A stretch of 32,750 bases of DNA. Source: an archaeon. GTDB lineage: Archaea > Undinarchaeota > Undinarchaeia > Undinarchaeales > JBDRKL01. The notes under the pieces were generated by a model. That model searched no databases. It was not told the origin of the DNA and saw nothing but the letters and a program-made list of their open reading frames with translations. Shown piece after piece: positions 6,205 to 19,437 of the stretch. Positions within the stretch are counted from its first letter, which is position 1, and each line of letters begins with the position of its first letter. Both the position numbers and the translations under genes were made by a program. The stretch spans positions 1 through 32,750 of the forward strand of contig JBDRKL010000011.1 in assembly GCA_043814055.1 (NCBI GenBank), written 5' to 3'.

Positions 6205-6810
6205 ATGTATCAAATAGTTGAAATACAAGACACAGTAAGGGTTCCGCCGAGCACGTTTGGCGAAGACTTGGATAAAGCGCTAAAGGCAATACTAGCGGAG
6301 ACATACGAGGGCAAGCTTGACCGGGATGCAGGCGCCATAGTGTCAATCATAGAAGTCAAGACCGACGGAGTCGGCAAGGTAATACCTGGCGACGGCGCCG
6401 CGTACTACAACACGACTTTCAAGGCGCTCGCGTACCAGCCAGAGCTTCAGGAAATAGTTGACGGCGACGTGATTGAAATCGTTGAATTCGGCGCATTCGT
6501 GAGGCTAGGTCCGCTTGACGGTCTAGTACACGTATCGCAAATCACTGATGATTTCCTTAATTACGACGAGAAAGGTCAGAGGTTTGTTGGGAAGGAATCC
6601 AAGAAGACACTTGCGCAGGGCGATTTGGTTCGTGCTCGTGTTGTAACAATCAGCCTGAAGAAAGCCAAGGAGAACAAGATTGGACTCACAATGAGGCAGC
6701 CAGGGCTTGGCAAGTTTGAGTGGATAGCAGACAAGAAAACTGAGACGGTGGGCAAGGCAAAAGAAGAGAAAGAATCCAAGCCAAAGAAAGGCAAGAAGGG
6801 GAAGAAGTAA
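6205..6810 (+). CDS. rpoE1: RNA polymerase subunit E' (Rpo7)
   Basis: DTVRVPP, IPGDGAAY, S1 domain FGAFVRLGPLDGLVHVSQI, KIGLTMRQPGLGK. Confidence 0.97.
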   Translation: MYQIVEIQDTVRVPPSTFGEDLDKALKAILAETYEGKLDRDAGAIVSIIEVKTDGVGKVIPGDGAAYYNTTFKALAYQPELQEIVDGDVIEIVEFGAFVRLGPLDGLVHVSQITDDFLNYDEKGQRFVGKESKKTLAQGDLVRARVVTISLKKAKENKIGLTMRQPGLGKFEWIADKKTETVGKAKEEKESKPKKGKKGKK

Positions 6811-6812
6811 AA

Positions 6813-6942
6813 ATGAGACGCAAAGCAGTAAATTTGTCAAGCAACTTCGCGTTCATTCACAATGAAACTCCAGAGACTGTAAAAAATAATATTGCTGGAG
6901 ATTCATTGTGTTCAAAGCTGATGAAAGCGGTGAGGCTTTGAA
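6813..6942 (+). repeat. Structured intercistronic element copy 1 (hairpins A+C+B); 42-aa mini-ORF 6813-6941
   Basis: ATGAGACGCAAAG...CTTCGCGTTCAT (6813-6856); CACAATGAA/TTCATTGTG with CTCCAG/CTGGAG (6858-6910); TTCAAAGC/GCTTTGAA (6911-6942). Homologous to 9171-9246 and 10047-10108. Confidence 0.9.
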
Positions 6943-7128
6943 ATGGCTGACAAAGCGTGCAAAAAGTGCAACAGAATAACAGACAAGCATATCTGTCCAG
7001 TCTGCGGCAACGAGGATATGTCAAGCAGGTGGAGTGGATTGTTAATTATACTCAACCCAGAGACCTCTGAGGTTGCGAAAAAGCTAGGCATAACACAAAA
7101 AGGAGAATACGCACTCATAGTGCAGTGA
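6943..7128 (+). CDS. spt4: Transcription elongation factor Spt4 (RpoE'')
   Basis: KACKKC...CPVCG, WSGLLIILNPETSEVAKKLGI...GEYAL. Confidence 0.96.
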   Translation: MADKACKKCNRITDKHICPVCGNEDMSSRWSGLLIILNPETSEVAKKLGITQKGEYALIVQ

Positions 7129-7133
7129 TACAA

Positions 7134-7490
7134 ATGAAATTTGAGATTAAAAACCAAAAAGAAAACAAGCTGTTGAACCGGAAGGAACTCCGCATTGAGA
7201 TGACAGCGGAGAAGCAAACCCCTTCCAACGAAGAAGTTTTAGCCCAGGTTACAGCCCACACCGGCGCCAAGAAGGAGCTTGTGGTTATTGACAGCATTAA
7301 ACAAGCATTCGGCTTAACTAAAAGCGTTGCATATGTGAAGGTTTACGATTCTGAAGCTGATTTGAAAGCCGCAGAGCCATCTCCAAAGAAGAAGGCGGAT
7401 GCAAAGCCGTCTAATGTTCCAGACTCAAGTGGAGAGATATGCGTTCAGGTTGATGCGCCGGCTGAGGAAAAGAAAGAAGGTGAAGACTAA
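7134..7490 (+). CDS. rps24e: 30S ribosomal protein S24e with C-terminal extension
   Basis: [14 protein letters not shown]....[11 protein letters not shown] 7134 preferred over GTG 7125. Confidence 0.93.
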
Positions 7491-7747
7491 TGGCTGGCAA
7501 AGGCGGCGGAAAGGACAAGAAGAAGCAGTTCAACAAGTATTCTTATTACACGGTTTCAGGGGTCAAGGCAACCACGAGCAAGAAGTTCTGTCCGCGCTGC
7601 GGACCTGGAGTTTTCCTTGCAGACCACAAGTCGCGGGTTTCCTGCGGCAAGTGCGGCTACAGCGAGGTAATGAACGCAGTTAAGAAGGAAGAGCCAAAAG
7701 CTGAAGCGCCTAAAGAGAACGCAAAGCCTGAGGAAACAAAAGAATAA
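7490..7747 (+). CDS. rps27ae: 30S ribosomal protein S27ae
   Basis: [13 protein letters not shown]...CGKCGY zinc ribbon; follows rps24e. Confidence 0.96.
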
Positions 7748-8199
7748 TGACCCGCGTCCTTCTAAAAACCAACAAAGGCGACATAAAAATCGAGTTATTT
7801 TCTGACATGCCAATCACTGCTGGCAATTTTGAGAAATTAGTCAAGGAAGGTTTCTACAACGGAGTGATTTTCCACAGAGTTATTGACGGATTCATGCTGC
7901 AGGGCGGCGATCCAACCGGCACAGGCACAGGCGGACCCGGCTACAAGATTAAGGACGAGTTCACAGACCACAATCGCAACGAGCGCGGCACACTTTCAAT
8001 GGCAAACGCAGGTCCTAACACAGGCGGGAGCCAATTTTTCATCAATTTGGTTAACAACGACTTTCTGAATGACAAGCATCCTGTTTTTGGAAAAGTAATT
8101 GAAGGGATGGATGCTGTTGACGCGATAGCAAAAGTCAAGAAAGATTCTAACGATAAGCCGCTTGAGGCTGTAACAATAACTTCAGCAGAAGTTGTTTGA
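7747..8199 (+). CDS. ppiA: Cyclophilin-type peptidyl-prolyl isomerase
   Basis: FHRVIDGFMLQGGDPTGTGTGGPG, LSMANAGPNTGGSQFFI, HPVFGKV. Confidence 0.95.
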   Translation: MTRVLLKTNKGDIKIELFSDMPITAGNFEKLVKEGFYNGVIFHRVIDGFMLQGGDPTGTGTGGPGYKIKDEFTDHNRNERGTLSMANAGPNTGGSQFFINLVNNDFLNDKHPVFGKVIEGMDAVDAIAKVKKDSNDKPLEAVTITSAEVV

Positions 8200-8205
8200 G
8201 CTATT

Positions 8206-8442
8206 TTATTCAGCAGTCAGCTGAACAATCAAGGTTTCATCCGAAAGAACATCAGGATTTTCACGGATTTTATTCATTACTTCAGTATCAAACTTCTCCA
8301 GACTCTCAACATCAGCCCTGACCATAAAGTCATACTTACCCATAACGATTTTAGCGTCCGTAATCCCGTCAATGCTCTTAAGCTCAGCGAGGATTTCTTT
8401 ATCCTTCGCCGGTGTGATTTTTCCAAGTATGTAGATTTCCAT
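8206..8442 (-). CDS. Stand-alone Lrp/AsnC ligand-binding (RAM) domain protein
   Basis: 78 aa, IVMGKYDFMV...IRENPDVLSDETLIV pattern, no HTH; divergent from rpe. Confidence 0.85.
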   Translation of the reverse strand: MEIYILGKITPAKDKEILAELKSIDGITDAKIVMGKYDFMVRADVESLEKFDTEVMNKIRENPDVLSDETLIVQLTAE

Positions 8443-8542
8443 TTCTCCCAGACACTCCTTTTTGATTCAGGTTTATATAAGTTGCGTTCTGCTTCATATT
8501 ATTTATATAATACCTCTGCTTACTTGTTTCTTGGGAGAACGA

Positions 8543-9187
8543 ATGGATTACAAGATTTCACCATCAATATTGTCAGCAGACTTTGCAAAGCTGGGTGAGC
8601 AGATAAAACTCATTGAGCAAGAGGCAGAGCTTCTGCACATTGACGTTATGGACGGCCACTTCGTGCCGAACATAACCATTGGAGTTCCGGTTGTGGAGTC
8701 AATCCGCAAGATAACCAATATGCAGCTCGACGTTCATTTAATGATTGAAAATCCTGAAAATTTTGTTGAAGCTTTTGCAAAGGCCGGCTCAGACATAATC
8801 ACAGTGCATGTTGAAGCTATGAAAGATGGCGCAGTGCTGGACAAAATCAAGAAACTCGGCAAGAAATCCGGAATTGCGATAAACCCAGACACAAAACTTG
8901 ACACAATCGCGCCTTATTTAGAAAAAGTTGACATGGTTACAGTAATGTCCGTGAACCCAGGCTTCGGCGGGCAGGGTTTCATAGATGTTTCTGACAAAAT
9001 CAAGGAGCTTCGCGCAAAATACAGCGGAGACATTGAAGTTGACGGCGGAATAAAGCTGGAAAACATCAAGGAAGTTGCGGATGCAGGCGCGAATGTCTTT
9101 GTTTCAGGCTCCGGCATTTTTAAAACCAACGACCCTGCAGGCACAATAAAAAAGATGAAGGAGATTTTAAATGAGACACAAAGCTAG
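8543..9187 (+). CDS. rpe: Ribulose-phosphate 3-epimerase
   Basis: SPSILSADF, HIDVMDGHFVPN, DVHLMI, MSVNPGFGGQ, IEVDGG. ATG 8543 with TTTATATA at about 8502-8509. Confidence 0.97.
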   Translation: MDYKISPSILSADFAKLGEQIKLIEQEAELLHIDVMDGHFVPNITIGVPVVESIRKITNMQLDVHLMIENPENFVEAFAKAGSDIITVHVEAMKDGAVLDKIKKLGKKSGIAINPDTKLDTIAPYLEKVDMVTVMSVNPGFGGQGFIDVSDKIKELRAKYSGDIEVDGGIKLENIKEVADAGANVFVSGSGIFKTNDPAGTIKKMKEILNETQS

Positions 9188-9246
9188 AAATTTGTTAATC
9201 AGCTTCGTGTTCATTTCAAAGCTGATGAAATGGAGGAAACTTTGAA
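9171..9246 (+). repeat. Structured intercistronic element copy 2 (hairpins A+B); 24-aa mini-ORF 9171-9245
   Basis: ATGAGACACAAAGCT...AGCTTCGTGTTCAT (9171-9214), then TTCAAAG...CTTTGAA (9215-9246) directly before the transketolase ATG. Confidence 0.9.
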
Positions 9247-10050
9247 ATGGATAACTTGAACGAAACTGCAAAAACAATCAGAAAGCACATAATCGAGATG
9301 ACCGGAGCAGCAGGCTGCGGGCATCCAGGCGGCTCGCTATCAGCTACGGACATACTTACTGCGCTATACTTCTCAAAAATGAACATTGACCCAAAGAACC
9401 CTAAAAACCCAGACCGGGACAGGTTCATACTCTCAAAAGGCCACGCAGCTCCAGGGCTCTACGCAACTCTTGCAGAGCGCGGCTTCTTCCCAATTTCAGA
9501 TTTAAAAACCTTGCGAAAGCTTGGTTCGCACTTGCAAGGGCACCCAGTTCTCGGCTCAACACCAGGAGTTGAAGCATCAACTGGCTCGCTCGGGCAGGGG
9601 CTCGGAGTTGGGAACGGAATGGCGCTCGCCGCGAAGCTTGACAAAGCAAACTGGCGCATCTACGTGCTTTTAGGGGATGGGGAATGCCAGGAAGGTAGTG
9701 TTTGGGAAGCTGCAATGGCTGCAGCGCATTATAAATTGGACAATGTTACTGCAATTCTTGATTACAACGGCTTGCAAATTGACGGCTGCACAAAAGACGT
9801 GATGGATTTAGGTCAAATTTCTGAAAAGTGGACAGCTTTCGGCTGGAACGTAATAGAAGTGGACGGCCACAATATTGAAGAACTGCTTAAAGCGCTTGAT
9901 GAAGCTGAAAAAACCAAGGGAAAACCAACAATTTTAATCGCCAAAACCGTTAAGGGCAAAGGAGTTTCATTCATGGAAAACAACCCGAAGTGGCACGGGG
10001 TGACTCCGAATGAGGAAGAAGTGAAAAAGGCGTTGGAGGAGTTGAGATGA
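9247..10050 (+). CDS. tktA: Transketolase, N-terminal (TPP-binding) subunit
   Basis: [30 protein letters not shown]...DYN. Confidence 0.96.
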
Positions 10051-10108
10051 GACACAAAGCAAAGCTTCGTGTTCATTTCAAAGCTGGTGAAATGGAGGGA
10101 ACTTTGAA
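10047..10108 (+). repeat. Structured intercistronic element copy 3 (short hairpin A+B); 21-aa mini-ORF 10047-10112
   Basis: ATGAGACACAAAGCAAAGCTTCGTGTTCAT (10047-10076) plus TTCAAAGCTGGTGAAATGGAGGGAACTTTGAA (10077-10108). Confidence 0.9.
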
Positions 10109-11047
10109 ATGACTGAAAAAGAACCAATGCGCAAGGCATACGGAGAAGCGTTAGTCGAGCTCGGCAAGGAAAATGAGAACGTAGTAGTGCTTGACGCAGA
10201 TCTTTCCTGCTCAACCCAGACAAAAATCTTCGCAAAGGAATTCCCAGAGCGCTTTTTCAACCTTGGAATCGCAGAGCAGAACCTTGCGGTCACAGCTGCT
10301 GGGTTTGCAAGCGCTGGCAAAATCCCATTTATGAGCACTTTCTCAGTTTTCGCACCAGGAAGATGCTATGACCAAATCCGAGTCAGCATTTCATACTCAA
10401 ATCTGCCTGTGAAAATCGTTTCAACACACGGCGGAATCACAACTGGGGAAGACGGGCATACGCATCAGGCCTTGGAAGACATTGGAATGCTCCGCGCGCT
10501 CCCCAACTTTAAGATTATGGTTCCGGCAGATGCGCTTGAAGTGAAACAAATGGTCAAAGCCAGCGTTGACTACAAAGGCCCGGTCTATATCAGAGTCAGC
10601 AGGATGAGTGTTCCGCGAATTTACCCGGATGATTACAAATTCAAGGACAGCGCAGACGTTCTGCGCAAAGGAAAAGATGTTTCAATAATCGCGTGCGGCC
10701 TAATGGTTAAGAACGCGCTGGACGCTGCAGAACTCTTGGAGAAAGAAAATATTAGCGCAGAAGTTGTGAACATGCACGTAATCTCCCCAATTGATGAAAA
10801 ACAAATCCTAAAAAGCGCAAAAACTTGTGGCGCAATAGTCACAGCAGAAGAACACAGCGTAACAACTGGTCTCGGAGCTGCAGTAGCTGAGATTTTGGTT
10901 GAGAATAATCCTGTTCCAATGGAGCGAGTCGGGGTTAAAAACAGGTTCGGGCAGAGCGGAAAGCCCGACGAGCTAATGAAAGAGTACAACCTGACCGCCG
11001 AGGATATAGTAAAAGCGGCGAAGAAAGTTGTGGGGCGGAAAAAATGA
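10109..11047 (+). CDS. Transketolase, C-terminal subunit
   Basis: LDADLS, GIAEQN, GEDGHTHQALED, EEHS...GLG, FGQSG. Confidence 0.96.
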   Translation: MTEKEPMRKAYGEALVELGKENENVVVLDADLSCSTQTKIFAKEFPERFFNLGIAEQNLAVTAAGFASAGKIPFMSTFSVFAPGRCYDQIRVSISYSNLPVKIVSTHGGITTGEDGHTHQALEDIGMLRALPNFKIMVPADALEVKQMVKASVDYKGPVYIRVSRMSVPRIYPDDYKFKDSADVLRKGKDVSIIACGLMVKNALDAAELLEKENISAEVVNMHVISPIDEKQILKSAKTCGAIVTAEEHSVTTGLGAAVAEILVENNPVPMERVGVKNRFGQSGKPDELMKEYNLTAEDIVKAAKKVVGRKK

Positions 11048-11921: not shown

Positions 11922-12321
11922 CGTAGTGCAACAAATATGCAGTTCTCAAACTTGACCAAAGGCATTGGGCTTGCTCGGTAGCACTGTAGCCTCATCTATT
12001 TCATGCAGCGCAGCGCCCCTCCGCCGCTTGGCGGAGGTGTAGTGCAATTTTTCATCAAATAACAAGCTTTATATAGCACTCTTGCCCATTTTCCAATTAC
12101 TTCCAGGCAGTAAAACATTGTAGTGCAAAAACTCCGCGGCCAGGCGGAGTTGTAGTGCAACGGGCCCCAAAATGGTATACAAGAAATACGTAACTAGAGA
12201 CGGAAAGAGGCATGGTCCTTATTATTATACTACAGTGCGAGACAAGGAGGGGAAGGTAAAAACTGTTTATTTGGGCTCTGACTTATCAAAAATCAAGAAG
12301 CAGCAAGCCAATGTAGTGCAA
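11922..12321 (+). repeat. Five direct GTAGTGCAA motifs, two preceded by a CTCCGC-N6-GCGGAG hairpin
   Basis: GTAGTGCAA at 11923, 12039, 12120, 12152 and 12313; hairpins at 12018-12037 and 12130-12151. Confidence 0.92.
12068..12075 (+). promoter_or_regulatory. Probable TATA box of the giant surface-protein gene
   Basis: TTTATATA preceded by purine-rich AAATAACAAG, about 100 nt upstream of ATG 12172. Confidence 0.55.
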
Positions 12322-15300
12322 CGAAATCAACGTTCAAAAACTCCAAAATCTACCAGCCCGCAGCTGAAATATATGGCAATCCCAGTTGCTGTCCTGTTCA
12401 TTTTCGCAATTCTTGTTTTCTCGCTCTCTTTATCCGAGCCAACAGCGTTTGACTCGCTTATGCCTGGAAAGCTCATAAGCGGTTTTACAACTTTCGGTGA
12501 GGAGGGTTTTGACCCTGAAACTCCTATTATGGACAGCGGAACCATCTTGCCAGTGGAAGCGAATGAGACAGAATCACATCCTCCTGCGCCAGAAACTCCT
12601 CCAGCATCAATACCCAAAACCTCAGGGGACGCGGATAGCATTACTGCCCTAATAGATGATTTGCTTGCACTACCTGAACAGGAAGTTCCTGCTGAGGAAT
12701 TAGCACCCGAAGCTCCGGCTGAAGAACCAGTCGGACCATCGCTAATGATGACTGCAGAAGAGTCAGCATACTTGCCACCGCTCCCAGCTGGAATTGACGA
12801 GGTGCCGCCGAACGGCTCAGACCCGTATTACATAAACGAAAATACAATTCTAAGACACGACACATACAATATAAATGTTACATCACTTCCCACAGCTCAG
12901 GCTGCGCTCTGGATAAACGCCTCTGACATCTATCTTGACTGCAACGGCTCAACAATAATGGGCAACGGTACTGGCTATGGTGTATATATAAACAGTTCGT
13001 TTTCAAACGTTGTAATCCGGAATTGCATATTATACAATTACAGCTATGGCATATTCGCAGAATCAAATAACTATCACCTTATAGCCAACAATACAGTTGA
13101 CTCAAATGCGAATCAGGGCATTTATCTTTACAATTCAAACTACAGTAATGTTACCAACTGCACAGCTATAAATAATTCTGAGCGTAGCCTGCAGTTCACT
13201 TACAGTTATTTTGCAAATGCAACCAATATCAATTTAACAACCATCTACTCCGCTCAGCAATTATATTTTGAAGGGAGTCACAACTGTTCAGTTTTCAACG
13301 CAACTGTGACTGGAGGCACTGACGTAATATTTTTGTCTGGCAGTACAAACAACACTTTTTCCAACATAACTACAAGTGGTGGCAACTACGGCTTCTATCT
13401 GGTTGGTTCAAGCAACAATACAATAAAAAATAGTTACATTCTTAATCAGGGTGACTATGGAATATATGTTATGGATTCTAATTCTATGGACAATCTTTTC
13501 TACAATAATTATCTTGCAAGCAATGCTGCTGGTGCTTGGGACGCCGGTACAAATGATTGGAACACTTCTGAGCAGACTGGTCCTAACATAATCGGCGGTG
13601 ATGATATCGGTGGTAATTATTATGACAATTACACTGGCTATGATTTGGATGGTGATGGTATAGGGGATACCCTTGATTATCCAATACCAGAATTTGGTTT
13701 AAACATAGATTACCTCCCACTAACCAACAATGTTACGCCCTGTGTGAATTTGACAAACGGTACAAGTCCTTATTATGTGAACGAGAGCACAACGCTCTGC
13801 GAAGGCCAGAGCGTGAATATAAATGTTTCAAATAATCAGGGTGCGCTCTGGTTCAACGCCTCAAATATATATCTTGACTGCAACGGCTCTACAATATTCG
13901 GAAACAACTCCTCTGCAGGGTTCGGCGTCTGGATTAATCAAAGCTTTGAAAACATCACAGTAAAGAATTGCGTGCTGCTCTATTATGACTTTGGCATAAT
14001 CGCCCAGTCAAATCACCATAATATTACGAACAATACAGTTATGGACAGTCCCAGTTATGGCATGTACCTTGAAAATAGCAACATAAGCAACATCACAAAC
14101 AACACCCTAATTAGAAGTGGTATGTATGGATTTTATATAACTTCAAGCAGTAGCACCAATGTTATAGAGGGTAACAATATCAGCAACAACACGCTTGATG
14201 GTATTCATATTAATGGAGATTCCGATTGGAATAATTTAACTAAAAATTTGATTTCGTATAATGGCAATGATGGCATTTACGTCTCACAGTGGTTTTATAC
14301 TGCCTCACAGAGCTTTTATACTACAATAAGTAACAATACAGTGAGTTTCAATTCTCTGACTGGAATCTATCTAGGTCAAGTCTCCGATCCAACGAGCCTA
14401 TCTTTTCTGGTTGTCCGAAACAATACCGTGATAAATAACTCGCAGTACGGTATCTTCCTGGATTATATTGTCCAAACCACTCTGGCGAACAACACAATTC
14501 AGGAAAACGCAGTAGCGGATTTGGCTATAAACGCAAATTCTGATGCTATTTGCAAGCACCTCGTGGAGAACAATACGGGCTCTAGTGGCGGGCAAATCTG
14601 GTTCAATAACACTTCTGTAAACATCCAAAATGTTGAGCTATCTGAGCTTATACTCTGCAATGCGGATTATTCAACTGTGACTAATGTGAATGTCAGCGGT
14701 TCTGATACGCTTTACAACAATTACATATTTACTGCAAGAGCCGCGAGCCTCGCGTTTTCTAATGTAAATTCTTCCTATAATTATCATGGAATCTTCTCTA
14801 GCTCTGGGAATTCCAACAATCTCAGCAATCTTACATTGTTAAATAACAGCAATATCGGGCTTTACATAACTGGCAACTCATTCATTGTGAACAACAGTAA
14901 TATTAGCGGCAACACGATTAATGGACTTTACATAAACAATAGCAAAACTGGCAATTTGATTTACAACAATTACCTCGCCAACACAAACAACACCTGGGAT
15001 GACGGCACAAATGATTGGAACACTTCTGAGCAGACTGGTCCGAACATAATCGGCGGGGTGGACATCGGCGGCAATTACTACAGCAATTATACTGGAACTG
15101 ATAGCGATGGTGATGGTATAGGAGATACTTTGGATTACTACATACCTGGTGGTTCAAACATAGATTACCTGCCGCTAACTAACAATGTTATCCCCTGTGT
15201 GAATTTGATAAACGGCACAACTCCATACTACGTGAATTCAAACACAACGCTCTGCGAAGGCCAGAGTGTAAATATAAATGCTTCAGGGGGTGAGAGTGCT

Positions 15301-18300
15301 TTGTGGATAAACGCTTCAGATATCTACCTTGACTGCAATGGTTCAGTCATATTTGGTGATAATGCGAGTGCTCCAAATGCTGCGAGTGGTATTTACGTGA
15401 ATGGTTCATTTTCTAATATTACGATAAGGAATTGTGTTGTGCATAGCTATTCTTCGGGTGTGTATCTTAACATGACTGAGGATAATACTTTGCAGAATAA
15501 TACTGTGTATTATGCTTATGCTGGTTTTAGGTTGATAGCTGCGAACAGGAGTAATCTCACGAATAATAACGCTACGCTCAACCAATTGGGTTTCTACCTC
15601 TCGGGCAGCAGCTCAAACAACACGCTTTCAAACAACAACGCAAACTTTAACAATGTTGCGCCGAGCGGCTGGGGCTTCTTTGTGGGGTCAGGTAGTAATG
15701 AGAATAACCTAACTAATAATAACGCCAGCTCAAATTTGATCACTGGCTTTTACATATACTCAAATAACAACAATGTCCTTAACAACAACGCCAGCTCAAA
15801 CACCAATTACGGAGTGCAGCTTCTAGCCGTTCAGGGTAACAATATTTCGGATAATACACTTCAAGAAAACGCTATCTATGACCTAGTGTTATCTATAAAT
15901 ATCCCAACTCACTGCCAGAACTACATTTCAGGGAACACTGGTTCCGGTGGCCGCCCGATATGGTTCAACAACACTTCAATAACTGTGCAAGATGTAGAGC
16001 TCTCAGAACTCATACTCTGCAATGCGGATAACTCCATACTCCTCAATGTCAATATATCAGGCTCAGCAACTTTGAACAACAACAACATAGATGCGTCGTT
16101 TGTGGATAATTCTAATTTTACGAATGTAAATTCATCTGGCAACTATCGCGGAATAGAAATGTATCATAGTACGTTCAATAATATATCTGGGGGTAATTTC
16201 TCCAACAATTTGTGGGGCATCTACCTCTGGAATACAAATAACACTACAGTCTTTAACAATAATGTGAGCGACAATACCCAGGCTGGGATAAAGCTTTCCA
16301 ACGAGGCCACTGACAATACAATCTACAATAATTATTTCAACAACACTAAAAATACATATGATTCCGGCACAAATGATTGGAACACTACGCAGCAGACTGG
16401 TCCGAACATAATCGGCGGGGTGGACATCGGCGGAAACTTCTACAGCAATTACACTGGAACTGATGATGATGGCGATGGTATAGGTGACATTCTGGATTAC
16501 TACATACCTGGTGGTTCAAACATAGATTACCTGCCGATAACTAATGAGATCACTTCCTGCGTAAATCTTACGAACGGCACAACTCCATACTACGTGAATT
16601 CAAACACAACGCTCTGCGCTGGCCAGAGCGTGAATACAAATGTTTCAAATGGCGAAGGCGCTTTTACAATAAGTGCAAATTCAATCTATCTCGACTGCAA
16701 TGGTTCAACAATATTCGGAAACGGTTCAGGCAATGGAATCTTGTTAAGTGGCGTTTACACCGAGGTTATAATCCGAAACTGCATACTACACGACTACAAC
16801 TACAGTGCTTACATCTCAGCAAGCAGTTCAAACAGCTTCTACAACAACACGTTTTATAACAGCACTCTGGACAATGTTTACATAGAGGGCCTATCCGGCT
16901 CAAACAATTTCACGAACAACACGCTTCATTCCGGAGGCCAGCGCGGAATTATGCTGAGCTCCGTGATGGACGGCAACATGTTCTATGATAACTTGATTTA
17001 CAACCACACTTCCACTGGCATAGTCATTGGTTCAGGCACAGACAATAACATTGTCTCCGGCAATAATGTGAGTGAAAACAGCGGCAATGGAATTCAGGTT
17101 CAGGGCAGTAGCAATACGATAGGCAACAATTACGTGGCTTCAAACAGCATTCACGGCTTTAACATTTCATCTCCTGGCTCCTATAATATACTCTCAAATA
17201 ACACGGCATTCAACAATTCCCAGGTTGGTTTCTACATTAGCTCCTCAAATTTCAACAATCTGACCAACAATACAATCTACAATAACTTGGATTATGGAAT
17301 CTATGTTGAGTCTGCAAATACCATAAATATCTCCAACTGCACATTCTGGAATAACACGGATGATACCTATACTTACGCCACGGAAGGCGAGACCTGGTTC
17401 CAGTCATCTACAAGCATAACTTTCTGGAACAACACTGTGATTGACACTCACAATACAGGCGTTTATTACAATTCAAGCAACGATTCAATAGTGGCGTTCA
17501 ACACGTTTTCGTCAAATGATGGAACTCCTAGCGCTATTTCAGCCCGCGAAACTGACAATGTAACTATCCACAATAACACGTTTGTCAATTTCACAGGCGG
17601 CGGCGTGTATAACATAGTCACCCAGATTTCAACAAACATCAACGTGTCCCAGAACAACTTCTCAAGCTCCCGCTGGGCAGTTGACTACAGGCAAACCAAT
17701 GACAGCTATATTGAAAACAACTTATTCTACACAAATTCTCTTGTGGGCATAATGGTCAGAAACGCAGCAAACAATATCACAATCCGCTACAACACGTTCT
17801 ATGACAACCTTACCAATTTTGGAATAGTCCTGATTAATACCACCAACAATGATGTCTATAACAACACACTTGAAACCAACAATGGACTTGACATATACGA
17901 CGAAGCCCACGGCAACTTAATCCACGACAACATGGTGAAGTTCAGCAGCTACGGGTTCTGGTTTGAGCTCACTGATGCATCCTATACCAACCAGAACAAT
18001 ACAATTTACAACAACACGTTCTACGATGGTATCTCATGCTTCTACGCCGACCTGCTCCGCGGCTCGGGCAACATATTTGAGAACAACACGCTCACAAACT
18101 GCAGCTACGCGGTGCGCGCGAACAACATGACAAATGGAAGTGCTGTTCGCATCAGATGGAACAATATCACGCAAACAAACATCTCAGTGTTCTATGCGCA
18201 GGCTGGCTCAGAATTGATAGTATACGACATGAATATTGATAGCTCTAATAACATGTCAGCAATATCCCAGACCGCCAGCACAATCCATCTGGTAAATATG

Positions 18301-19437
18301 ACACTCAACCGGTCTACAACTAACATAACTGACACCTCAAACATAACAGCTAAGTGGTATAGCGTTGTCAGGGTTTATGATGCAGACAGTAGCGCCAATC
18401 TGAGCGCAAGCGTGACCTCAACCGCAAGCGACAGCAGTATTGAGTGGACTGCCACGTCCGCAAGCGCGACAGGCAGGACAACTAATTCCTGGCCATATAA
18501 TCTAGATACTGAATATGTTGAATACCAGCCAGGCAACCTTTCAAACATATCAAACATATCCACGCACGTATTCTCTGCCTCTGCAACCGGCTACACAGCC
18601 GGCACAACAACAAATTCAACGCTTTCAAATGAAATCGCCACTTATGACATAGCATTGTCAGTAACGCCCAACGGAACTTCTCCTCCTAGTGGCGGTGGCG
18701 GAGGTAGCTCAAGTGTATTTGTCCCACTTCCGCGGCTCAAGATAGAGCCGAGCAATATTGAGAACGGCAAATTCACGGTTTATGTTGAAAACATCGGTAA
18801 TGTTGACCTTGAGGGGATAAAGCTCAAGCTCAGCGACTTGCCTTCCAGAGTGCAGGCAAAGTTCAGCCCGAATTTGCTTGACCTAAAGGTTGGTGAAGGT
18901 GATGAATTTGAGGTCATGCTGGACGGCACTGAGAACTTGCCTGGCGGCTCTTATGACATAAATGTCCGCGTAAACGACATTGAGAACCAGGCCAGTGCAA
19001 CCGCAATGGTTACATTCGCAATTGAGGGTATGCAAAAACCGAAGAAGCCGGTTGAAATCCCGCCTATACTGATGAATATAATTAAAAAGCTCTTTGACCC
19101 GCGCATACTCGTCCTTGCAGCCATAATAACCTCATTGATAGTGCTCTTCATGGCATACCCAGTTGAAAAACTCAATCTGCCAAAGGCAATACGTAAGATA
19201 TTCAAGTTCCGGCTTGTTAAGAAAAAGATACCAGTGCCTATCGGAACTGTTCTTGACTCTGAAAAGATGCGCCTTGCCAGATACATAAGCTATGAGGTAA
19301 AGGGTGGCAAGAAAGTTCCTGAAATCCTGGAATCACTTGAAACCGACGGCTGGAAGAAAAAGGACCTTGACACAGTGGTCGGCTACCTTGAGGAGAACGA
19401 CTTTGAGCTAGAGGAAGTAGGCAAGAAAAAGAAGTAA
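12172..19437 (+). CDS. 2421-aa membrane-anchored surface protein: basic GPYYY N-terminal domain, TM, four NosD/CASH-like beta-helix modules, TM, C-terminal tail
   Basis: Repeated LDCNGS, GIYL..S.NN.I.NN, GPNIIGG.DIGGNYY and D.DGDGIGD motifs; many N-x-S/T sequons; SGGGGGSS linker; hydrophobic segments near both termini. Confidence 0.92.
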   Translation: MVYKKYVTRDGKRHGPYYYTTVRDKEGKVKTVYLGSDLSKIKKQQANVVQRNQRSKTPKSTSPQLKYMAIPVAVLFIFAILVFSLSLSEPTAFDSLMPGKLISGFTTFGEEGFDPETPIMDSGTILPVEANETESHPPAPETPPASIPKTSGDADSITALIDDLLALPEQEVPAEELAPEAPAEEPVGPSLMMTAEESAYLPPLPAGIDEVPPNGSDPYYINENTILRHDTYNINVTSLPTAQAALWINASDIYLDCNGSTIMGNGTGYGVYINSSFSNVVIRNCILYNYSYGIFAESNNYHLIANNTVDSNANQGIYLYNSNYSNVTNCTAINNSERSLQFTYSYFANATNINLTTIYSAQQLYFEGSHNCSVFNATVTGGTDVIFLSGSTNNTFSNITTSGGNYGFYLVGSSNNTIKNSYILNQGDYGIYVMDSNSMDNLFYNNYLASNAAGAWDAGTNDWNTSEQTGPNIIGGDDIGGNYYDNYTGYDLDGDGIGDTLDYPIPEFGLNIDYLPLTNNVTPCVNLTNGTSPYYVNESTTLCEGQSVNINVSNNQGALWFNASNIYLDCNGSTIFGNNSSAGFGVWINQSFENITVKNCVLLYYDFGIIAQSNHHNITNNTVMDSPSYGMYLENSNISNITNNTLIRSGMYGFYITSSSSTNVIEGNNISNNTLDGIHINGDSDWNNLTKNLISYNGNDGIYVSQWFYTASQSFYTTISNNTVSFNSLTGIYLGQVSDPTSLSFLVVRNNTVINNSQYGIFLDYIVQTTLANNTIQENAVADLAINANSDAICKHLVENNTGSSGGQIWFNNTSVNIQNVELSELILCNADYSTVTNVNVSGSDTLYNNYIFTARAASLAFSNVNSSYNYHGIFSSSGNSNNLSNLTLLNNSNIGLYITGNSFIVNNSNISGNTINGLYINNSKTGNLIYNNYLANTNNTWDDGTNDWNTSEQTGPNIIGGVDIGGNYYSNYTGTDSDGDGIGDTLDYYIPGGSNIDYLPLTNNVIPCVNLINGTTPYYVNSNTTLCEGQSVNINASGGESALWINASDIYLDCNGSVIFGDNASAPNAASGIYVNGSFSNITIRNCVVHSYSSGVYLNMTEDNTLQNNTVYYAYAGFRLIAANRSNLTNNNATLNQLGFYLSGSSSNNTLSNNNANFNNVAPSGWGFFVGSGSNENNLTNNNASSNLITGFYIYSNNNNVLNNNASSNTNYGVQLLAVQGNNISDNTLQENAIYDLVLSINIPTHCQNYISGNTGSGGRPIWFNNTSITVQDVELSELILCNADNSILLNVNISGSATLNNNNIDASFVDNSNFTNVNSSGNYRGIEMYHSTFNNISGGNFSNNLWGIYLWNTNNTTVFNNNVSDNTQAGIKLSNEATDNTIYNNYFNNTKNTYDSGTNDWNTTQQTGPNIIGGVDIGGNFYSNYTGTDDDGDGIGDILDYYIPGGSNIDYLPITNEITSCVNLTNGTTPYYVNSNTTLCAGQSVNTNVSNGEGAFTISANSIYLDCNGSTIFGNGSGNGILLSGVYTEVIIRNCILHDYNYSAYISASSSNSFYNNTFYNSTLDNVYIEGLSGSNNFTNNTLHSGGQRGIMLSSVMDGNMFYDNLIYNHTSTGIVIGSGTDNNIVSGNNVSENSGNGIQVQGSSNTIGNNYVASNSIHGFNISSPGSYNILSNNTAFNNSQVGFYISSSNFNNLTNNTIYNNLDYGIYVESANTINISNCTFWNNTDDTYTYATEGETWFQSSTSITFWNNTVIDTHNTGVYYNSSNDSIVAFNTFSSNDGTPSAISARETDNVTIHNNTFVNFTGGGVYNIVTQISTNINVSQNNFSSSRWAVDYRQTNDSYIENNLFYTNSLVGIMVRNAANNITIRYNTFYDNLTNFGIVLINTTNNDVYNNTLETNNGLDIYDEAHGNLIHDNMVKFSSYGFWFELTDASYTNQNNTIYNNTFYDGISCFYADLLRGSGNIFENNTLTNCSYAVRANNMTNGSAVRIRWNNITQTNISVFYAQAGSELIVYDMNIDSSNNMSAISQTASTIHLVNMTLNRSTTNITDTSNITAKWYSVVRVYDADSSANLSASVTSTASDSSIEWTATSASATGRTTNSWPYNLDTEYVEYQPGNLSNISNISTHVFSASATGYTAGTTTNSTLSNEIATYDIALSVTPNGTSPPSGGGGGSSSVFVPLPRLKIEPSNIENGKFTVYVENIGNVDLEGIKLKLSDLPSRVQAKFSPNLLDLKVGEGDEFEVMLDGTENLPGGSYDINVRVNDIENQASATAMVTFAIEGMQKPKKPVEIPPILMNIIKKLFDPRILVLAAIITSLIVLFMAYPVEKLNLPKAIRKIFKFRLVKKKIPVPIGTVLDSEKMRLARYISYEVKGGKKVPEILESLETDGWKKKDLDTVVGYLEENDFELEEVGKKKK
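13551..16710 (+). repeat. Three highly similar ~340-bp intragenic inter-module repeats
   Basis: AAATGATTGGAACACT...CAGACTGGTCC.AACATAATCGGCGG begins at 13551, 15009 and 16371; similarity runs through to GACTGCAA(C/T)GG. Confidence 0.9.

Follow-up and report, generated by a model that had tools for sequence, protein, structure and literature searches.

The stretch of DNA analysed here (the window, 32,750 nucleotides, nt) covers positions 1 to 32,750 of the forward strand of contig JBDRKL010000011.1 (our contig C11) in assembly GCA_043814055.1 of an archaeon of the Undinarchaeota, and it carries a short repeated element at three junctions between neighbouring genes, rpoE/spt4, rpe/tktN and tktN/tktC. 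The assembly comprises 979,685 bases in 14 contigs and is 82% complete. A first-pass annotation had placed three homologous elements at these junctions, and we located their motifs at exactly those places. The 5' motif ATGAGACRCAAAGC (14 nt) occurred exactly three times in the window, at 6813, 9171 and 10047, always on the + strand, with a chance expectation in the window of 0.54 matches at two or fewer mismatches. A 21-nt middle motif also occurred three times, in the same three elements only (expected 0.00).

Each element consists of two hairpins, denoted A and B, between an ATG at its 5' end and an ATG at its 3' end. Minimum-energy folds gave both hairpins in all three elements, with z-scores of -3.2, -2.4 (element 2) and -1.9 against dinucleotide shuffles. 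Hairpin A spans ATGAGACRCAAAGC to GCTTCGYGTTCAT. The bulged G, the A.C mismatch and the change from ACGC/GCGT to ACAC/GTGT previously reported for it were present in the alignments as well as in the folds. Hairpin B pairs (CAT)TTCAAAG with CTTTGAA(ATG) around a loop of 18 nt. Element 1 (6813..6945, +, 133 nt; nhmmer E=2.4e-18) is a long form and lies between an rpoE/Rpo7-like gene (6205-6810; Pfam SHS2_Rpb7-N and S1) and spt4 (6943-7128; Pfam Spt4). Its ends are marked by the putative old start ATG (6813) and the new one (6943), and it contains hairpin A (6813..6856; 5' arm 6813-6826, 3' arm 6844-6856, supported by fold and covariation), a nested 54-nt hairpin (6857..6910) that blastn assigned to a separate hairpin-repeat family, and hairpin B (6911..6945; arms 6911-6917 and 6936-6942), whose loop holds the Shine-Dalgarno (SD)-like GCGGTGAGG and which ends with the new ATG (6943-6945). 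Element 2 (9171..9249, +, 79 nt) separates rpe (Pfam Ribul_P_3_epim) from tktN (Pfam Transketolase_N); its hairpin A pairs 9171-9184 with 9202-9214, its hairpin B pairs 9215-9221 with 9240-9246 around a loop containing GGAGG, and the new ATG is at 9247. Element 3 (10047..10111, +, 65 nt), a short form recovered by nhmmer, covariance model and fold, separates tktN from tktC, with hairpin A at 10047-10060 and 10064-10076, hairpin B at 10077-10083 and 10102-10108, and the new ATG at 10109.

Reading from its 5' ATG, each element is also a small open reading frame (ORF), and the three mini-ORFs described in the first-pass annotation were all in the ORF list. Mini-ORF 1 (6813..6941, +, 42 codons) ends in a TGA (6939-6941) one base ahead of the spt4 ATG, and mini-ORF 2 (9171..9245, +, 24 codons) likewise ends in a TGA one base ahead of the tktN ATG. 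Mini-ORF 3 (10047..10112, +, 21 codons) begins at an ATGA shared with the stop of tktN and terminates at a second ATGA, shared with the start of tktC. The elements had also been said to begin at or near the upstream stop, which is true for rpoE and tktN but not for rpe, whose frame enters element 2 by 14 nt and ends at a TAG (9185-9187) in the loop of hairpin A.

The three elements belong to a family dispersed over the genome. An iterated nhmmer search (cut-off E<1e-3) found 31 copies of 62-136 nt. A covariance model built from 14 copies and a hand-written structure found them again, with element 2 as the top match of both types of model, and added two degenerate copies, one before pgk and one at C9:268-334, bringing the total to at least 33. 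Every copy was co-oriented with the next gene. Placement was not random, as the first-pass annotation had anticipated, since each of the 31 nhmmer copies adjoined either a gene start or the beginning of a further unit. The final ATG opened an ORF of 47-729 aa in 27 of them. Two others were the first units of tandem pairs (C7:65142-65291 and C10:34923-35065), the only two dimers seen in the one genome examined. The last two ended in ATC or ATT (C9:38007-38088 at purF|purD and C10:112087-112163 ahead of a helix-turn-helix (HTH) gene), and in both cases the TTG within the element's CTTTGAA, which is in frame, serves as the start of the gene. For purD, Pfam GARS_N aligned from residue 1 of this TTG-started frame, and the mini-ORF stop and the TTG together made a TTGA overlap.

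The flanking genes, as identified by Pfam, were ordinary housekeeping pairs. Besides rpoE|spt4, rpe|tktN and tktN|tktC, they included porA|porB, top6B|top6A, pyrB|pyrI, mrp subunits, ABC permease|ATPase, S7|EF-2, L7Ae|S28e, L24e|NDK, L39e|L31e|LX, proteasome-alpha|SBDS, rfbA|rfbB|aminotransferase and purF|purD. Copies at unrelated loci could be nearly identical: element 1 and the copy between porA and porB (C10:26384-26516), in an unrelated operon, differed at 2 positions in 133 nt. Slippage or gene conversion could in principle have duplicated each junction locally with no foreign DNA inserted, and both the two tandem pairs and the purD and HTH copies, which look like the loss of one TGAAA-TGAAA unit, would fit such an origin. 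However, the same repeat sits at 31 unrelated junctions whose flanks share only ATG(A), and it is not derived from the local genes, so that we regard local duplication as very improbable.

Both hairpins are maintained by compensatory changes. In a model-fitted alignment of 26 copies and 20 pairs, 92.5% of the cells were standard base pairs, and 12 of the 20 pairs had changed on both sides (33 cells). None of 500 shuffles reached any of the five measures, and sliding the 3' partners by 1-3 columns reduced pairing to 25-50%; the real value thus lay above all shuffled and all slid controls. Hairpin A occurred as ACGC/GCGT, ACAC/GTGT or GTAC/GTAC, with ATC/GAT replacing ATG/CAT in some copies, and where the 5' ATG is replaced by ATC, that base pair is kept as C-G (pair 6-51). 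Hairpin B occurred as TTCAAAC/GTTTGAA and TTTAAAG/CTTTAAA. Its loop holds a Shine-Dalgarno run and its stem pairs the new AUG, by up to 10 bp in the folds. On a plain MAFFT alignment of 31 copies, RNAalifold recovered no more than 5 hairpin-B pairs, a consequence of misaligned 5' arms in the second subfamily.

Several other structural assignments were considered. An alternative hairpin C, formed by the 3' arm of A and the 5' arm of B, was paired in 76.8% of cells against 74.8% in shuffles, with 2 double changes against 1.8, and we treated it as a by-product because the CAAAGC/GCTTYG core is repeated. By eye, the variable flanks allow no exon helices, as an archaeal bulge-helix-bulge intron would need; an integron attC site agrees neither with the core motifs nor with flanks made up of housekeeping operons; and the GA positions of a possible K-turn in the CUGAUGA loop are unconserved. 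Rfam matched no family to the element: there were no matches in the window at the gathering score and none at three further loci, and at E up to 10 over positions 6700-10300 the sole match was a chance snoRNA match away from the elements.

Comparison with related genomes indicated where the DNA had been added. The genomes compared were 16 others of the phylum, 12 of which belong to the same order, and 44 more distant archaea; in none of these 60 did the covariance model have a match. As the first-pass annotation had led us to expect, orthologous junctions in relatives were bare ATGA overlaps: at pyrB|pyrI in 10 of the 12 same-order relatives, at rpoE|spt4 in 7 of 10 relatives and at tktN|tktC in 3 of 10, the other 7 having unrelated spacers or N-terminal differences. 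At top6B|top6A, all 10 relatives had spacers of 2-14 nt with the element absent. At this pyrB|pyrI junction, ...GGGGGTGGAA..ATGA of the relatives aligned to ...GGGGGTGGAGGTAAAATGA here, which is the 5' ATG of the element, and pyrI here begins at the 3' ATG. Similarly, the tktN C-terminus A(M/L)EEL(K/R)-stop and the ATGA overlap of three same-order relatives aligned with the 5' ATG at 10047. Excision of the element in silico, keeping the 5' ATG, restored natural junctions, for example 8-nt overlaps ATGGATAA at rpe/tktN and ATGATTAA at mnhB/mrpC.

The 5' ATG also has the surroundings of a former start codon. The upstream stop overlapped it in 8 copies and lay at most 12 nt upstream of it in 10 more. 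An SD core was present at -18..-4 for 20 of 23 5' ATGs, compared with 18% of all genomic ATG triplets, and SD motifs accompany both the 5' ATG and the 3' ATG; a short-motif search of the assembly for the 16S 3' end gave no match. The base following the 3' ATG was A in 6 of 6 copies with an upstream ATGA overlap and in 5 of 15 others (Fisher p=0.0085), as would be required of an original ATGA. The element ends share only ATG, ATGA or AAATG, as short direct repeats at both ends.

These data can be set against a second reading, in which the host built the element as a cis-regulatory leader. The two hairpins would gate translation by presenting the SD in a loop while enclosing the AUG in a stem; temperature, a protein or upstream translation would open this gate, which would have been recruited to tune the ratio of complex subunits and spread by functional selection. 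Copies do lie at subunit pairs (tktN/C, porA/B, top6B/A, pyrB/I, mrp, ABC permease/ATPase and ribosomal protein pairs), the compensatory changes keep the structure, the new AUG is held in a stem of up to 10 bp, and the ATC copies retain pair 6-51. However, the family was absent from all 16 other genomes of the phylum searched, where the same junctions are simple overlaps. The near-identical copies at unrelated loci, the tandem units and the carriers of nested repeats also speak against it, as do downstream genes without a common pathway and the lack of an Rfam family. Such a leader would be compatible with an origin by insertion, and as an explanation of the family we consider it rather unlikely.

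Over the whole family, the mini-ORFs were almost all open, and the absence of stops was specific to their frame. Among the 23 copies with a 5' ATG, 22 were open as far as the downstream start and 21 stopped within 4 nt of it: 13 at a TGA 4 nt before the new ATG, 7 at an ATGA, and 1 at the gene's ATGA after crossing a second tandem unit. One stopped 13 nt inside the gene, and one was closed after 5 codons. The GTG-started purD copy and the degenerate pgk copy were also open, ending in TTGA and ATGA overlaps, which brings the open mini-ORFs to 24 of the 25 copies having a 5' start and upholds the openness noticed at first in three. The same two stop arrangements had been reported for the window, where two of the mini-ORFs have a TGA one base before the downstream ATG and one an ATGA overlap. 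Interior stop triplets numbered 0, 29 and 22 by frame, and 0, 16 and 4 in the variable loop of hairpin A alone. When this loop was shuffled, 13.4 of 19 copies were expected to be open, and all 19 were (product of probabilities 8e-4, overstated given the common ancestry of the loops). With lengths divisible by three, the nested inserts (54 and 45 nt) leave the mini-ORF frame open. No copy was in frame with, or fused to, the downstream gene, and in 23 of 27 copies a stop in that frame lay at most 36 nt upstream of the new ATG; therefore, all three frames close near the start.

Open frames preceded by an SD, with the conserved beginnings MR(R/H)K or M(T/A)QQ, might also point to a family of functional micropeptides. 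However, the mini-ORFs range from 21 to 46 codons, and the conserved 3' half is read in two frames, by 13 copies and 7 copies, giving the unrelated tails ...SFVFISKL... and ...FKAGE.GETLK; the peptide is therefore not the thing kept. Conservation tracks base pairing rather than codons, and we give the micropeptide reading almost no credence. The two frames also qualify the earlier observation that the peptides are conserved at their ends only: the peptides do differ, and their divergence comes from the use of two reading frames across the family as well as from diverged middles.

Taken together, the family is likely to be a lineage-specific, non-coding and probably selfish repeat that was inserted on start codons, mostly within operons, in such a way that translational coupling would be preserved. 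The first-pass annotation had proposed a MITE/REP-like insertion at operon junctions with preserved coupling, and this proposal agrees with the outcome on position, openness, covariation, Rfam and empty sites, the tests that it had named. Insertion would leave the old ribosome-binding site and the old ATG of the gene in place, and would add hairpin A, which pairs the old ATG, hairpin B, whose loop brings a new SD, and a further ATG from which the gene now starts. Ribosomes might then be loaded on the mini-ORF by the old SD and ATG, or enter it across the old ATGA overlap after translating the upstream gene. In translating the mini-ORF they would open up hairpin B, whose stem otherwise pairs the new AUG and whose loop shows the new SD, then terminate at the UGA one base before or overlapping the new AUG (within 1-4 nt) and re-initiate there. 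The two genes would thus stay coupled after insertion, which is relevant to the many subunit pairs. The stops and starts have the geometry of such coupling, at a spacing of -4 or +1; translation of the mini-ORFs, re-initiation and preserved coupling are inferred. Seven copies have no 5' start and would have to be served by the SD that the element carries. The purD and HTH junctions may reflect either a TGAAA(T) microhomology junction or the slippage loss of one TGAAA-TGAAA unit.

Several observations weigh against a selfish insertion with a translational relay. An early stop occurs in one copy (C7:65288), and with 7 of the 31 copies having no 5' start codon the relay is not universal. The consensus is open in two frames, so that openness is partly inherited and not selected. 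The covariation alignment was fitted to the model and leans its way, and the copies share descent, so that the shuffle and frame statistics overstate independence. G.U cells (19) and A.C cells (18) were about equally frequent, so that neither the strand nor the RNA or DNA level of the structure can be distinguished from them. The mobility of the element is read from its distribution alone. By eye, in the absence of a repeat-finding run, no clear or classical terminal inverted repeats were found, CAAAG/CTTTG being the arms of internal hairpins, and searches of the 82%-complete assembly for transposases of four families found no member. PF01797 (Y1_Tnp) had no match in this genome, with control matches in 6 of 14 genomes; PF13358 (DDE_3) and PF01609 (DDE_Tnp_1) had no match in the assembly; and PF07282 (TnpB zinc ribbon) gave one sub-threshold match, within a 638-aa frame.

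Some of these points would suit hairpins that act on single-stranded DNA. The element would then be a protein-less passenger of an HUH/Y1 enzyme (IS200/IS605 or REP/RAYT-like) or of another hairpin-recognising enzyme, and its effects on RNA would be tolerated by-products. Imperfect subterminal hairpins with a bulge and a mismatch, the fixed orientation, the very short terminal direct repeats (ATG, ATGA or AAATG) and the lack of a strand signal in the G.U and A.C cells are all in keeping with this. However, Y1_Tnp went unmatched and TnpB zinc ribbon only sub-threshold in the incomplete assembly, and the frame-specific avoidance of stops together with the 3' SD and ATG indicates that selection acts at the level of RNA and translation too. 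We hold this alternative to be possible, although the balance is clearly on the other side.

A broader form of the favoured reading, insertion on start codons, can also be put forward, tentatively. Among reduced DPANN archaea, hairpin DNA that homes to start codons might be a general and so far undescribed selfish class. Needing no enzyme that it encodes itself, it would spread through ATG/TGAAA microhomology, at which the purD and HTH junctions hint. Its translation patch would be complete, with stops in each of the three frames, a hairpin masking the AUG, a new AUG and an SD. The host might have turned it to its own use, as a means of setting the ratio of complex subunits.

Some copies carry, or are related to, other small repeats. 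The 54-nt hairpin nested in element 1 has free-standing copies at C10:139291-139337 and C12:9101-9153 (blastn) and further copies at C4:~940-1010 and C10:112077-112132; one free-standing copy directly follows an apparent tRNA 3' end. The L39e|L31e copy (C9:28239-28356) has a different, G+C-rich nested insert of 45 nt between hairpins A and B, in frame and with arms CTCGGACGC.../...GCGTCCGAAG, and in the copy at C12:143449-143600 a relative of this insert replaces hairpin A. The copy at C12:97273 resembles an internal-deletion derivative of the long form.

Related units were also found outside this genome. In a metagenome scan that yielded 4 loci, only contig L138 (1.6 kb), from a related uncultured organism, contained convincing ones: two tandem units before thyX (1366-1480, -) with a different, compensated hairpin A. 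The thyX of the present genome is 78% identical in protein to that of L138 and has no units upstream. In the second L138 unit, a C-to-T change (TTCAAAG to TTTAAAG) places a stop in the mini-ORF. Two patterns searched for in viral contigs gave 0 matches, and a TktN search for relatives in other contigs returned distant matches only (at most 68% identity, mostly Bacillota), which were of no use for synteny. Among same-order genomes, L144 (G009) and L145 (G001) have an unrelated spacer of ~94 nt at tktN|tktC, ~95 nt upstream of tktC, containing a CxxC...CxxC zinc-ribbon-like mini-ORF of ~30 codons that begins in the tktN ATGA overlap and ends beside the tktC ATG; L143 (G005) has a 50-nt spacer upstream of tktC in which the direct repeat caagcgtc occurs twice. 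The tktN|tktC junction seems to have been invaded repeatedly in this order. Downstream of the tkt cluster, the window contains an ORF of 2421 codons (12172-19437, +).

Among known systems, the MITE label used in the first-pass annotation is apt as a likeness but does not hold as membership. The terminal inverted repeats of a classical MITE, matching those of a transposase-encoding insertion sequence, were not found by eye, and the Y1 HUH transposase that marks REP/BIME-RAYT systems or IS200/IS605-derived PATEs was missing from the PF01797 search. Rickettsia palindromic elements are hairpin-forming selfish repeats of a reduced genome that sit in frame inside protein genes and join the protein. 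The archaeal family likewise consists of hairpin-forming, probably selfish repeats in a reduced genome that survive through open frames, but none of its copies sits in frame inside a protein gene or forms an N-terminal fusion with the downstream ORF. Neisseria REP2 and the Borrelia inverted-repeat elements are summarised as carrying a ribosome-binding site, an ATG and two stem-loops (PMC3184786); in that account they are said to carry a promoter too and are not described as bridges between two cistrons with a relay ORF. Termination-reinitiation coupling at -4/+1 spacing is known from both archaea and bacteria (Huber et al. 2019, 2023, cited in PMC12548453). It shares with the present junctions the stop/start geometry, in which the two codons overlap as NTGA or the stop lies 1 nt ahead of the start, and an enrichment at genes that encode heteromeric-complex subunits. 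Unlike ordinary coupling, that of the archaeal family would run through an inserted mini-cistron that is not a gene, twice in series.

If this reading is right, the family offers an unusually clear RNA-structure signature with about 30 natural replicates in one genome, and thus a ready test set for archaeal termination-reinitiation and structure-dependent coupling. It would explain short "hypothetical" ORFs and odd operon spacers in DPANN metagenome-assembled genomes, which are prone to annotation miscalls, and it would be a further sign that active small repeats occur even in host-dependent archaeal genomes of 1 Mb.

The closest parallel is with mycobacterial MIRUs, which were reportedly described by Supply et al. 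in 1997. MIRUs are 40-100 bp long and occur in 40-50 copies; their direct repeats are tetranucleotides, M. leprae has empty sites, and their ORFs overlap those on either side (Delihas 2011, PMC3184786); they are co-oriented and intercistronic, insert at start codons and contain an internal ORF coupled at -4 spacing (PMC12548453, PMC3184786). On these descriptions, both families are short dispersed repeats in tens of copies, intercistronic in operons and co-oriented with the genes, and both combine start-codon insertion with an internal coupled ORF, short direct repeats and empty sites in relatives; both are thought to minimise the cost of insertion. The archaeal copies resemble a MIRU-like repeat in size and copy number, in siting at start codons with filled and empty sites, and in an internal ORF that abuts the gene. 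They differ in their archaeal host, in two hairpins kept by compensatory changes, in an SD of their own in a hairpin loop with the new AUG paired, and in two stop arrangements (UGA-A-AUG and AUGA); in the one genome examined, two dimers were seen and not the variable-number tandem arrays of MIRUs. The likeness, drawn from descriptions of MIRUs, is one of kind and does not amount to homology or membership, the host being an archaeon. A full-text literature search for archaeal equivalents found nothing specific. The family is best read as an archaeal analogue of the mycobacterial MIRUs, with a new sequence and an added covarying structure, which would mean that the MIRU design, a start-codon repeat paying its way with a relay mini-ORF, arose independently in Archaea.

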